Shown: positions 29,490 to 35,028 of the stretch, piece after piece | Layout: every line of letters starts with the position of its first letter | How positions within the stretch are numbered: the stretch's first letter is position 1 | DNA from: Shigella phage ESh28 | Sequence record: ON528738 | Direction: 5' to 3' (one strand) | DNA length: 64,000 bases | Notes under the pieces: model-generated | Seen by the model: only the letters and a program-made list of their open reading frames with translations | Told to the model about the DNA's origin: nothing | Database searches by the model: none | Translations under genes and position numbers: made by a program

Positions 29490-30053
29490 ATGAAAACCTA
29501 TGCCGAATTTTTAACCGAAGCAGCAAAATTACCATCTGAAGCAGATCTTACTAAAGTATTCTTCCAATTGGACCCAAAAGACCGTGGCGATTTTCTTAAG
29601 TGGAAAGCTAAAGCTATTGAAATGTATAACATCGATAATAGTTCTTTTACGATGAGTCAAGAAAATAAATTCAATAAAGCATTTTTCAAAATTTCTAAGA
29701 AACTGGCATCAGGCGCTCAGGTTCCTAAATCTGCCTTAGCTACTCCTGAACGCGCACCCGTCAAAATTTCTAAGAATATGTTTGACACTAAAAAATATGT
29801 TAATGCTTTGAATAAAGCTCTTGATGCATTGGATGATGCAAAGAAGGCAGCCCGCGATCTTCAAGACGTGTACACCGATTTTGATCGTAAAACTAAAGGT
29901 TCTATTTCAAATAGTGAACGCAATAGTGTAAGTGTTTATTCAGATAGCCTTGATGTTCTTGGCGATGCGTATACTGAAATTAAAAATCGTATTAACACTG
30001 CATCTAAGCTAAAAGCTGCTGCCGAAGCTATAATAACTAAACTGGGTAAATAA
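29490..30053 (+). CDS. internal protein III-like (capsid-targeted)
   Basis: 187 aa; N-terminus MKTYAEFLTEAAK matches the internal-protein capsid-targeting consensus (MKTYQEFIAE-like); Lys/Ala-rich. Confidence 0.6.
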   Translation: MKTYAEFLTEAAKLPSEADLTKVFFQLDPKDRGDFLKWKAKAIEMYNIDNSSFTMSQENKFNKAFFKISKKLASGAQVPKSALATPERAPVKISKNMFDTKKYVNALNKALDALDDAKKAARDLQDVYTDFDRKTKGSISNSERNSVSVYSDSLDVLGDAYTEIKNRINTASKLKAAAEAIITKLGK

Positions 30054-30661: not shown

Positions 30662-31255
30662 ATGAACACACTGAAGAAAATTGTTGAGTTTATTCGCACT
30701 AAACTTGGTTCTGCTATGGCTAAAAATCTATCTGTTGAAGAACAGTATACTGCTGCGGCAGCAAAACTACTTGATAAAATTAAAGACCTAAAAACTGCTT
30801 CTGTTAAATCTATTAATGAAGAAAAACGTATTCGTGAACTTATTGTCGAAAAGAATAAGCAGGCCGAATCAAAAGAGCGTGAAATTCGCAAGCTTCTTTC
30901 CGAAGGTCAAGATGTAACAATGCATGCTAAACTCGGTTTACTATATCGTCGAACAGCTGAGCAGTTGACTACTAAGGCTGACGGTTATGCTGAAATGCGA
31001 ATTGAAATCGCCAAGAAAGTAGTTGAGTTAGATGATGCTCGTCAAGAACTTGCGGTTAAATTGGAATATATCCGTGAAACTCGTGCAGCAAATGCCCTTG
31101 GAATTAGTACTGCTGATGATGTAGTTGAAATTGCAGCACTGACTAAGGTTGATATTGAAGATACCCTTGCTCGAGTTGAAACCTTTAACGGTAATATTTC
31201 TGGGGTTGAAACTACCTCTGCCGATGTTCAGGAATACATTAATTCTCTGAAATAA
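30662..31255 (+). CDS. coiled-coil protein (weak PspA/IM30-like pattern)
   Basis: 197 aa, heptad-rich charged sequence ([11 protein letters not shown]...[26 protein letters not shown]); SD AAGGAAA upstream. Confidence 0.6.
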
Positions 31256-31260
31256 TGATA

Positions 31261-31280
31261 AGGGGCTTCGGCCCCTTATA
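31261..31280 (+). terminator. GC hairpin (terminator-like)
   Basis: aggggc-ttcg-gcccct stem-loop right after the stop; weak U tract. Confidence 0.45.
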
Positions 31281-31296
31281 CTTGGAGTAAATAGGA

Positions 31297-31911
31297 ATGA
31301 AAATGAAAATGCAAAGTGATTTCAATTCAATGTTTGAAGAGTTCCAAAGACAGGTTGATGTTCCAGACCAATTACTAAATGCTCTTAAACGCATGGCAGA
31401 AGGACGTAATTACTATTGGGGGTCTTCATATGAAACTGATGAAAGCCTTTCCGGAAGATTTTCTAGAGGTAAAAAGTCTTTAATACGTCCTGGAATACTC
31501 ATTAACAGTATTGAATCAATTCATTCATTGACGTGTGATTTTGATGTTGAATTTACTGATTTCATTTCTCCTGAATGGACGGTTTGTTATTTAAACGACG
31601 ATTATGATTATCTTGGCGTTTATAGTTTAAGTGATGCATGGTTTAAACGTAATTTACAAAAATCAAATTTATTTTATATTGATACTACGGTAAAATTTCA
31701 GGGAAAGAAATATTTCTTTACTCTTATAGTTGACTCTGAAACAAAATATGAAAATAAGCGTATTCTTAGTAAAAAGAATATCTTAACTATTGTTGATGAT
31801 CTTTTTGATAAATTCGTAGAAAATCCCAATTTTGAAAGCGATTTATTATTAGAAAAATTTGTTAAGGAATGTAGAGAATATGTCAAAGCCATCACTATAC
31901 CTTCCAAGTAA
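31297..31911 (+). CDS. hypothetical protein (C-terminal FVKECR motif family)
   Basis: 204-aa ORF; C-terminus ...EKFVKECREYVKAITIPSK shares a motif with the three following genes. Confidence 0.6.
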   Translation: MKMKMQSDFNSMFEEFQRQVDVPDQLLNALKRMAEGRNYYWGSSYETDESLSGRFSRGKKSLIRPGILINSIESIHSLTCDFDVEFTDFISPEWTVCYLNDDYDYLGVYSLSDAWFKRNLQKSNLFYIDTTVKFQGKKYFFTLIVDSETKYENKRILSKKNILTIVDDLFDKFVENPNFESDLLLEKFVKECREYVKAITIPSK

Positions 31912-32272
31912 ACCTGTGAAGTATGAACCAAAGCGTCAGCTAATTTCTACTGATGTGTTAATAGGTCCTGTGGTAGTTGTATCATTTGTGATTCTATTGA
32001 TTATTGGAGGTGTTTTAGATGTTATGACTGATATTGATTCTGGCGAAATACTTGTGTTAATGCTAATTCTTCCATTAATAGTTCCACTTTTATTAGTACC
32101 CGTAAATTGGGTAGGATACTGGTATCAAGGAAGACATTATCGTAAACGTGTACGTGATTGGAAAGCTCAGTGTAAAAAGATTAAAAAGGAACACCAGCTT
32201 AAGCTAGATATGTATGAATTTGATGAAATTATGAAATTTGTTAAGGAATCACGATGCAAAAGCCAAAACTAA
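31880..32272 (+). CDS. small membrane protein (C-terminal FVKESRCK motif)
   Basis: 130 aa from the ATG at 31880; two hydrophobic helices; start overlaps the 3' end of the previous gene. Confidence 0.55.
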   Translation: MSKPSLYLPSKPVKYEPKRQLISTDVLIGPVVVVSFVILLIIGGVLDVMTDIDSGEILVLMLILPLIVPLLLVPVNWVGYWYQGRHYRKRVRDWKAQCKKIKKEHQLKLDMYEFDEIMKFVKESRCKSQN

Positions 32273-32616
32273 ATAAAGTCAAATATTCGTTTCCTGAGGC
32301 ACTATTAATTCTTGCTGTATCAGTATTTACAGCTCTTGCGGGTAGTCTTATTGGATTGTTAATTGACTGTTTTATTTTAAATATCGACGGCACAGTAATT
32401 ATAACAGAGGTTTGGAGTGAACTTCGTTTTACTATAGCGATTTCATTATTTTCATTCTTTGGTACCATGTTATATTTTCATTATGATAATTTTAAAATAA
32501 ATTGGCAAAGAAAAAAGGATTACAAAATACAATTAAAGGAATATAATAGCTATATGTCTTATATTGAAAAAGAATCAATGGAAGAGTTTGTGAGTGATTG
32601 TAGGAAAATTAAATGA
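32254..32616 (+). CDS. small membrane protein (C-terminal FVSDCRKIK motif)
   Basis: 120 aa, two hydrophobic helices; overlaps the previous gene's 3' end. Confidence 0.6.
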   Translation: MQKPKLNKVKYSFPEALLILAVSVFTALAGSLIGLLIDCFILNIDGTVIITEVWSELRFTIAISLFSFFGTMLYFHYDNFKINWQRKKDYKIQLKEYNSYMSYIEKESMEEFVSDCRKIK

Positions 32617-33101
32617 TTTTAAAAACTCGCTGGTATGATTTAGATGATGGGGACGATGGCATTTCAGTTGATAGAGTTGACTGGAGCGGCTGTTCTGAAG
32701 ATACAAAGAAACGATTAATTAGGGAGTTTAGAATGGGATATCAAGCAGTTAAGCCATCTACTGTAACAGATGATAAATTCGTGTGTATTCATAATGGTCG
32801 TGCTAAGTTAACGAATGCTGAATGGTTCACAGATAAGATTATGATTCTGTGGTATATCATTAGTCTTCCTGTGTCATCATTCGTATTTTACTTTTTTATA
32901 AAAAATCCAATGGACAGAATAGGAGATTGGATTCTTTTAACCATACTTGTTAATATTTTTACAGCATCAATATTATCTGGGATATGGTACACGTTCATTG
33001 AAATGCCATGGCGGCTACGCAGACAACAAAAGATTTTTGATGAAAAGAAATATACTCAAAATTTAAATAACTTTATCACTGAATGCAGGAAATTAAAATG
33101 A
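32613..33101 (+). CDS. small membrane protein (C-terminal FITECRKLK motif)
   Basis: 162 aa, hydrophobic central helices; ATGA start/stop overlap with the previous gene. Confidence 0.6.
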   Translation: MILKTRWYDLDDGDDGISVDRVDWSGCSEDTKKRLIREFRMGYQAVKPSTVTDDKFVCIHNGRAKLTNAEWFTDKIMILWYIISLPVSSFVFYFFIKNPMDRIGDWILLTILVNIFTASILSGIWYTFIEMPWRLRRQQKIFDEKKYTQNLNNFITECRKLK

Positions 33102-34554: not shown

Positions 34555-35028
34555 ATGAAAACATATCAAGAATTTATTACTGAAGCAGCTATTAATTCTC
34601 AAATTATTGCTGAATCTTTTACTGATCTTTTGAAATTTAAAAAAGGTCAAAAAATCACTGCTGTATTGGATGATGGTACAGAAGTTGAGATGGATGTACA
34701 GGGATATAATTATGCAGTAGATGGAAAACTGTATAATAAATCTCATGCTAAATTTGATTCATTTGACGATTTTGTTAATACAGTTGAAGATGAAAAAACT
34801 CGTAGATCCATTGCAACTGGCGACGCTAAGGTTCTTATGGCACACGGTCATGAACGTATCCGCGTCAAACAGAATAAAATGGGCGAAGATAATTTCGCAT
34901 TAGTTGGTTATCAATCTGGTAAACAAACTTATGGCTATCAACGTACTGCTACCATGTATAACAAAAATGGTAAAATTGCCTTTGTAAATAGTAAAGGTTC
35001 TATTCAGTACGTTAAATCGTTCAAATAA
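34555..35028 (+). CDS. internal-protein-like protein with capsid-targeting N-terminus
   Basis: 157 aa; N-terminus MKTYQEFITEAA matches the capsid-targeting consensus; located between denV and the regB-side small genes, not at the T4 ipII/ipIII position. Confidence 0.55.
   Translation: MKTYQEFITEAAINSQIIAESFTDLLKFKKGQKITAVLDDGTEVEMDVQGYNYAVDGKLYNKSHAKFDSFDDFVNTVEDEKTRRSIATGDAKVLMAHGHERIRVKQNKMGEDNFALVGYQSGKQTYGYQRTATMYNKNGKIAFVNSKGSIQYVKSFK

Follow-up and report, generated by a model that had tools for sequence, protein, structure and literature searches.

Why should four consecutive phage genes, whose products otherwise have little in common, end in nearly the same peptide? The question is raised by positions 31297-33101 of a stretch of 64,000 nucleotides (nt) of Shigella phage ESh28 (sequence record ON528738), which is called the window here. 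The genes correspond to the T4 open reading frames (ORFs) e.5, e.4, e.3 and e.2, and each of them closes with a variant of the motif F-[VI]-x-[ED]-[CS]-R. About half of the T4 genes are still without known function, and e.2-e.5 are among them. These genes and the accessory early cluster that they form were already known; the motif that unites them is newly defined, and no mention of it was found in the annotations and literature surveyed, the T4 genome review lying outside that survey.

The codons of the motif are located, all on the plus strand, at 31858-31875 in e.5 (F V K E C R), at 32237-32254 in e.4 (F V K E S R), at 32587-32604 in e.3 (F V S D C R) and at 33072-33089 in e.2 (F I T E C R). 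Such a peptide is rare in this DNA. A six-frame translation of the whole 64 kb contains five matches to the pattern F[VIL]x[ED][CS]R, of which four are these C-termini. Within the last 17 residues, F-[VI]-x-[ED]-[CS]-R is found in 4 of the 93 plus-strand ORFs of at least 60 amino acids (aa), against 0.006 expected, and among 2000 within-ORF shuffles the maximum was a single ORF with the motif at that position. No further C-terminal copy was detected in the window or in T4 1-50 kb (together about 114 kb of T4-type sequence). When relatives are included, the motif widens to a nine-residue consensus, hydrophobic-[END]-x-[FW]-[IV]-x-x-C-R, in which the acidic motif position varies (E, D, G, Q, N, M, R or Y). 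In place of the Cys, members of the e.4 lineage carry S, I or V; those of Tequatro- and Mosigvirus have a Cys two residues further on.

For a broader comparison, orthologues were taken from T4, Mosigvirus APCEc01, Dhakavirus QL01, Gaprivervirus VR25 and Kanagawavirus KLB31, together with 16 IMG/VR loci and one metagenomic contig. Clusters of e.3, e.5 and e.2 at 90% identity provided 168 representatives. Cys and Arg are present in all 168, and [FW][VIL]xxCR in 167. In the alignments of e.5 and e.2, the members of which are 20-50% identical overall, F, C and R are the only invariant C-terminal columns; the e.5 alignment additionally keeps a Lys four residues downstream. The full set of invariant columns in e.2 is W7, D11, D12, G16, W24, C27, F154, C158 and R159, and its architecture (an N-terminal domain W..DD..G....DW.GC, two transmembrane (TM) segments, a basic tail and a terminal [FW]IxxCR) was recovered with the motif in 89 of 89 members. 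A search of 1.84 billion representatives with an e.2 profile (HMMER) returned e.2-like proteins only, and every full-length one ended in [FW]IxxCR.

The nucleotides that encode the motif are much less uniform. Phe is encoded by TTT or TTC, Val or Ile by GTT, GTG, GTA, ATT or ATC, Cys by TGT or TGC, and Arg by AGA, AGG, CGT, CGA or CGC, and the downstream Shine-Dalgarno sequence coincides with the K-E codons in some genes and with the R-K codons in others, while in Dhakavirus e.2 it falls in the E-E codons. Since five codons are used for Arg, the Shine-Dalgarno sequence shifts with respect to the motif, and Cys and Arg are invariant, the constraint acts at the level of the protein: judged from these alignments, the motif is a peptide under selection that is conserved across at least five genera of the Tevenvirinae. 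The shared C-terminal motif that a sequence-only reading of the window had noticed in the four products is thus a feature of the proteins, and translation-initiation signals alone do not account for it.

With respect to the identity of the genes, the region of about 2 kb was compared with some 500 Tequatrovirus (T4-like) genomes and gave a DNA identity of 92-99%; on this evidence the window is a Tequatrovirus genome. The gene order e.6-e.5-e.4-e.3-e.2-nudE-e (lysozyme)-denV matches that of annotated relatives, and the e.6-nudE part is syntenic with T4, RB14, AR1 and vB_SsoM_113. By identity and synteny the four ORFs are e.5, e.4, e.3 and e.2, all on the plus strand. The first, e.5 (31297-31911), encodes 204 aa from the first ATG, a soluble protein with no hydrophobic segment in which the motif is followed by an 11-residue extension overlapping the start of e.4; it ends in ...KFVKECREYVKAITIPSK, with the motif in the form KFVKECREY. 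It has 98.9% DNA identity to Tequatrovirus genomes, is annotated as e.5 in T4 and RB14, and gives a full-length profile match to phrog_2607 (E 3e-110); PF26876 is precomputed on its homologues. At 31880-32272, e.4 encodes a two-TM hairpin of 130 aa that ends in ...KFVKESRCKSQN, with the motif variant FVKESRC in which the Cys is displaced by two residues. The protein matches phrog_2604 over its full length (E 1e-70) and T4 e.4 is 87% identical; PF26873, recorded on a chimera (P0176) with an e.4 N-terminus, is probably the e.4 family. Another two-TM hairpin, of 120 aa, is encoded by e.3 (32254-32616); it terminates in EFVSDCRKIK, matches phrog_2330 over its full length (E 2e-58) and has 45 homologue clusters, each at least 72% identical. 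The last gene, e.2 (32613-33101), encodes 162 aa with a small N-terminal domain, two TM segments and a long cytoplasmic helix that ends in NFITECRKLK. It is UniProt Y06M, matches phrog_2203 full-length (E 1.8e-77 over residues 1-160), and carries PF26896 (Phage_T4_Y06M) as a precomputed assignment on all 87 homologue clusters.

Databases keep these proteins apart, with separate PHROGs for all four and separate Pfam accessions for e.5, e.2 and apparently e.4. The PHROGs are all without known function, the T4 annotations read conserved hypothetical or predicted membrane protein, and scans of the four proteins against Pfam and NCBIfam gave no match, and beyond the PHROGs there was no PADLOC-type or other family match either. 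Mutually inconsistent product names are found on these ORFs in BW-1, T6 AP018814, UTI-E2 and other GenBank records. The labels sulfurtransferase, site-specific RNA endonuclease, DNA primase, glutaredoxin and host specificity protein lack any support from hidden Markov models (HMMs), and such names appear to be propagated annotation errors or annotation noise. At the start of e.5, the hexanucleotide AAAATG is repeated three times (31296-31311), giving MKMKM, and T4 and most relatives have one unit fewer, many alignments beginning at query base 6 or 9; the e.5 of T4 begins one unit further on. Because the number of units differs among relatives, the true start of e.5 is ambiguous (31297 or 31303).

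Each motif abuts or overlaps the Shine-Dalgarno sequence and start of the next gene, as had been claimed from the sequence, and all elements of these junctions could be located in the window. The ATG of e.4 (31880) begins 4 nt past the Arg codon of e.5, the ATG of e.3 (32254) has its A in common with the last base of the e.4 Arg codon, and the starts of e.2 and nudE (ATG 33098) overlap the preceding stops as ATGA, so that the start/stop overlaps along e.5-nudE amount to 32, 19, 4 and 4 nt. The 16 identical nucleotides reported for the first two junctions are also real. The sequence AAATTTGTTAAGGAAT is present on the plus strand at 31855-31870 and at 32234-32249; it encodes KFVKE both times and contains the AAGGA Shine-Dalgarno sequence of e.4 in the first copy and the Shine-Dalgarno sequence of e.3 in the second. 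No other DNA repeat connects two of the four genes in register; three more repeat families were found, but they are 12-18-nt matches in two copies, of a kind typical of chance.

From this repeat it had been concluded that the array contains both recent and older duplications, a conclusion that we cannot uphold: the identity merely encodes the same KFVKE, Mosigvirus orthologues do not share it, and it is the sole in-register repeat. The four orthologue groups predate the genus splits: Mosigvirus and Gaprivervirus have all of them, Dhakavirus and Kanagawavirus three. Similarity between the members themselves is slight. Pairwise Smith-Waterman comparison gave marginal scores for e.4-e.3 (z 3.4) and e.3-e.2 (z 4.0), with e.5 at background. 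Profiles from enlarged alignments were compared with hhalign, using unrelated T4 membrane proteins as controls. This gave 95% for e.3 against e.2 over 18 columns, which cover the motif only, 89% for e.3 against e.4 over 42 columns of the tail, and 95% over 44 columns for e.2 against x101, an extra motif-bearing two-TM hairpin of 101 aa in Mosigvirus that also matches phrog_2203 (E 1e-4). No member reached more than 8% against the controls Imm, Sp, gp40 or 55.8, and an HMM of the C-terminal (membrane) half of e.2 found e.5, e.3 and e.4 among 615 ORFs only at E 0.35-5, which is not significant. Of the single family that had been supposed, the shared motif and a weak similarity between the tails of e.3 and e.4 and between x101 and e.2 therefore stand; the inclusion of e.5 does not, as it has nothing but the motif in common with the others.

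The proteins that carry the motif are all encoded between e.6 and nudE, and at least five different bodies can be told apart among them. In e.5 the motif is attached to a soluble domain of 200 aa, in e.4, e.3 and x101 to a two-TM hairpin, and in e.2 to an N-terminal domain with two TM segments; Dhaka-, Gapriver- and Kanagawa-type phages add s100, which is soluble, has about 100 aa and ends in ...LFLEYCRSDVQL or ...FIKQCRRNQNVS. The number of copies per genome is 3-5, with four in Tequatrovirus (three where e.2 is missing), five in Mosigvirus, five in Gaprivervirus, four in Dhakavirus and four in Kanagawavirus. Since proteins in sister genera that are otherwise unrelated end in it, the motif behaves as a portable C-terminal module.

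Two further observations were made on proteins of this neighbourhood. In sister genera, a second tandem family (phrog_899) of 3-6 small soluble proteins is located between e.3 and e.2 (L005 4731-5525; L006 34-1073; L007 56-1306; L008 28-1322; L030 5502-7153). All of them share the C-terminus G-x-W-[VIFY]-S-S-S-x-x-C-stop, which is again a conserved motif with a Cys, and the family is absent from the window and from the scanned T4 stretches. A metagenomic protein of 223 aa (P0192) consists of three tandem modules that resemble the N-terminal domain of e.2 (DDGxxGI....DWS..S...K..L) and has neither TM segments nor the motif.

Where the motif would be situated in the cell can be estimated from the topology of the membrane members. 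TM segments were assigned from Kyte-Doolittle windows and one AlphaFold2 (AF2) model, with no dedicated topology predictor, and the assignment bears out that three of the four products are membrane proteins: by hydropathy there is a pair of TM segments in e.4 (about aa 25-46 and 57-79), in e.3 (about aa 16-43 and 58-76) and in e.2, but no such segment in e.5. In the membrane members, Lys and Arg are abundant in the N-termini and C-terminal tails, and the loops between the TM segments are acidic; by the positive-inside rule this fits an N-in/C-in topology with a cytoplasmic motif. In the AF2 model of e.2 (predicted local distance difference test, pLDDT, 77) the N-terminal domain (1-66) and TM1 (74-95) are followed by one continuous helix (103-161), which comprises TM2 and a cytoplasmic extension of about 34 residues with the motif at its tip. 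When 30 tails are aligned on the Phe, hydrophobic residues recur at -3, 0, +1 and +4 (the Cys), and also at +7 where the tail reaches that far. Because this spacing corresponds to a heptad-like a/d pattern, we infer that the motif forms the last two turns of an amphipathic helix extending about 35-50 residues past TM2, with the Cys on its hydrophobic face.

Structure searches added little. The AF2 model of e.5 is poor (pLDDT 58) and gave nothing below E 0.03 with Foldseek against the PDB. Its top PDB matches, small alarmone synthetases, have a TM-score of 0.18, which is not meaningful. The e.2 model found no PDB match below E 2.8, and only e.2-like matches in BFVD.

The cluster is expressed early in infection. 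For T4, e.2-e.6 give early RNA, and their proteins were detected by mass spectrometry (PMC9697503, supplementary files 4 and 6); the early-region location that had been assumed for the four genes is supported. In a genome-wide dCas13d knock-down (CRISPRi-ART), e.2-e.6 were scored as 'Not Fit', with function 'Unknown' and prior essentiality 'UNKNOWN' (PMC11879866, supplementary files 8, 15), and the engineered T4_583L mutant, from which e.7 to e.2 are gone, is viable. The genes e.5-e.2 are early, yet dispensable on the laboratory host. Our literature search, which did not cover the T4 genome review, found no paper on their function.

The explanation that we favour, although it has somewhat less than an even chance of being correct, is that the motif is a shared docking or assembly element in the cytoplasm. 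It would be a helix on the cytoplasmic face of the inner membrane, and it could act in two ways. Either the tails bundle together, recruiting the soluble e.5 to the hairpins of e.4, e.3 and e.2, or every tail binds one common partner, from the phage or from the host. The tightly overlapping genes, which presumably are translationally coupled, would supply the subunits together, and the complex would serve a host-membrane function that is conditionally useful and not needed on laboratory E. coli. A more specific and considerably more speculative version holds that the motif is a portable tag which assembles the soluble e.5 and s100 with the hairpins e.4, e.3, x101 and e.2 into a hetero-oligomeric helical bundle, the invariant Cys and Arg forming a core layer that is possibly sensitive to metal or redox state. 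PspB/PspC with PspA, where a membrane anchor is likewise combined with a cytoplasmic amphipathic helix, may be mentioned as an analogy only, since PspB and PspC have no homology to e.4, e.3 or e.2.

Several observations weigh against a docking or assembly role. The structure models are of monomers, and that of e.5 is poor, as mentioned above (pLDDT 58); the fold searches identified no analogue. Co-variation between the members, taken as a sign of mutual binding, gives a mixed picture. Kanagawavirus, where every member has lost the acidic residue, is suggestive of it; the L030 lineage does not repeat this, since its e.2 has WIEGCR while e.5 has FVQECR and s100 has FIKMCR. A Cys layer cannot be universal, because the e.4 lineage has S, I or V where the motif has its Cys, and since several phages are without e.2, any complex must tolerate the loss of a member.

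The alternative that survives best is the proposal made from the sequence alone, that these are serially duplicated small membrane proteins which act independently as superinfection-exclusion or host-membrane effectors, the motif being a remnant of common ancestry. We regard it as unlikely, if still worth serious attention. Its format is right: e.4, e.3 and e.2 are small, early, N-in/C-in proteins of the inner membrane, as is T4 Imm, and the likeness to Imm and Sp extends to their being non-essential in T-even phages. The weak collinear similarity of e.4 and e.3 (z 3.4; hhalign 89%) and of x101 and e.2 also speaks for it, as does the fact that the genes can be dispensed with and are frequently missing, which is common among accessory genes for interaction with the host. 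Simple divergence, however, leaves unexplained why the last nine residues alone stay invariant, and this in every lineage, while the TM hairpins diverge beyond recognition, and e.5 and s100 are soluble and have only the motif in common with the rest. There is no similarity to Imm or Sp in sequence or profile (hhalign 0.3-8% against Imm and 1% or less against Sp), and those proteins are without the long basic cytoplasmic tail and the motif of the e.x proteins. To our knowledge, no exclusion phenotype has been described for the e.x genes. Published T4 screens report no phenotype for e.2-e.6 (PMC11879866).

A second alternative is that the motif is mainly a recombination or cassette-junction module, by which unrelated genes inherited the same last codons without a shared protein function. 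Loss and exchange of genes in the cluster speak for this idea. About 64 of 504 Tequatrovirus records lack e.2 (RB33-type). In RB33 a precise deletion joins the ends of e.3 and e.2 within a shared TGYAGGAAA microhomology; in an alignment of the window, T4 and RB33 the two partners are the e.3 end at 32596-32616 (the TGTAGGAAAATTAAATGA region) and the e.2 end at 33081-33101 (TGCAGGAAATTAAAATGA), both on the plus strand. As a consequence e.3 of RB33 ends in ...CRKLK and is coupled directly to nudE. Phage UFV05 carries a hybrid ORF with the N-terminal part of e.4 and the C-terminal part of e.2, which retains two TM segments and the motif. Because of the RB33 junction and the UFV05 hybrid, we conclude that the motif-coding ends double as recombination microhomologies for the loss or exchange of cassettes.

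The placement of the motif on unrelated bodies that are all in one e.6-nudE neighbourhood points in the same direction. Nevertheless, the DNA identity at the junctions is just 9-16 nt and is not kept between genera, and the preservation of the amino acids through many synonymous changes, with Cys and Arg in 168 of 168 representatives, requires selection on the peptide. Recombination is compatible with a docking tag, since it can spread a functional tag, but it is insufficient on its own, and as a full explanation we consider it improbable.

Decay in nature is frequent among these genes. The T4 cluster has the same genes in the same order as the window, with the difference that the reference e.2 of T4 (NC_000866 67491-67960) is split by two frameshifts, a -1 in an A-run and, about 70 nt further on, a +1 that compensates for it. 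The T4 product has 102 aa and is without TM2 and the motif; the window e.2 (32613-33101) is intact, with 162 aa. The same two-piece e.2 match is seen in other, independent T4-type records. In the e.3 of RB33 (L004 3453-3830), a 4-nt expansion of an A-run shifts the frame, which may be a homopolymer sequencing error. A 324-aa e.5-e.4 fusion annotated as a coding sequence in vB_SsoM_113 (L001 3098-4072) arises because 1 nt is missing from an A5 run just upstream of the motif; this is probably a sequencing error or a mutation and not programmed frameshifting.

Much less probable again is that the motif serves as a signal for processing, targeting or degradation. Late in infection, gp21 would then clip the tails, or a host protease such as FtsH or ClpXP would recognise them. 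The idea derives from the capsid-targeting sequence (CTS) of T4 internal proteins, MKTYQEFI[AT]E|A, which is a short terminal peptide on otherwise unrelated proteins of the same region and in this respect a precedent for a portable tag. There is also a local resemblance, EFI[AT]E against [EN]F[IV]xE: NFITEC, EFVSDC and KFVKEC are similar to the EFITEA of internal proteins encoded at 29490 and 34555. On a small membrane protein, a cytoplasmic tail of 35-50 residues is also a typical handle for proteases. However, F-[IV]-x-E is short enough to recur by chance. The CTS (MKTYxEF[IL]xE) is N-terminal, is present on soluble proteins that are packaged, and has an invariant Glu behind which the gp21 prohead protease cuts (after I/L-x-E), whereas the motif is C-terminal, mostly on membrane proteins, and has an aromatic residue, I/V, Cys and Arg as its invariant residues. 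The Glu required by gp21 is replaced by G, Q, N, M, R or Y in the motif of many members, while the CTS of the same phages keeps it. With this position in the protein and a P1 Glu that is not kept, the tails of e.5-e.2 were rejected as a CTS or gp21 cleavage site.

Finally, a by-product of the downstream Shine-Dalgarno sequence and translational coupling, or a nascent-peptide element for ribosome pausing, is hardly credible, because, although AAGGA lies within the K-E codons of e.5 and e.4 and AGGAAA within the R-K codons of e.3 and e.2, the Shine-Dalgarno sequence falls in different motif codons in different genes, the varied codons include CGN codons for Arg that are unable to form one, which largely refutes the first form, and the distances of 1-18 codons from the motif to its own stop and 0-37 nt to the next ATG represent a variation that arrest peptides do not tolerate.

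The surroundings of the cluster offer some additional observations. Directly upstream of e.5, e.6 (30662-31255, plus strand) is 65-88% identical across genera, against 20-50% for its neighbours, and looks like a coiled-coil protein. It is labelled 'shock protein A' in one GenBank record and 'host specificity protein' in another, with no HMM, PDB or hhalign support. A relation of e.6 to PspA, IM30 or Vipp1 was rejected: four e.6 orthologues gave no PspA_IM30 match at E up to 10, a PDB profile search found no PspA or Vipp1 chain, nor any solved structure, to be related, and hhalign against E. coli PspA gave 0.3%. Between e.6 and e.5, at 31258-31279, there is a GC-rich hairpin with a UUCG tetraloop (AAGGGGC-TTCG-GCCCCTT). 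Since a T-run on the plus strand is missing, it looks like an element for RNA stability or processing rather than a terminator. A promoter scan showed no excess over shuffles.

Internal-protein-like genes are located at 29490-30053 and 34555-35028 (plus strand) and start with a CTS (MKTYAEFLTEA and MKTYQEFITEA). The order in the window is e-denV-ip, compared with T4, where ipIII and ipII sit between e and denV, in line with the known variability of internal-protein cassettes. The N-terminus of T4 gp61.1 (L012, about 19130), MKTFKEFIKED..., also resembles the CTS of internal proteins.

The practical impact of these findings is limited, as the cluster is dispensable in the laboratory and without known phenotype. 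For the biology of the T-even phages, the cluster is a concrete, small example of cassette loss and hybridisation through microhomology at gene ends. The nine-residue tag ties four orphan proteins, and up to five in sister genera, into one testable hypothesis, that of a common partner or a membrane complex, and since Cys and Arg do not vary over hundreds of phages, the residues to be mutated can be named exactly. If the hetero-oligomeric bundle were to prove true, it would represent a membrane complex of T-even phages that has so far gone unrecognised, its genes being listed in databases as orphans without relation to one another.

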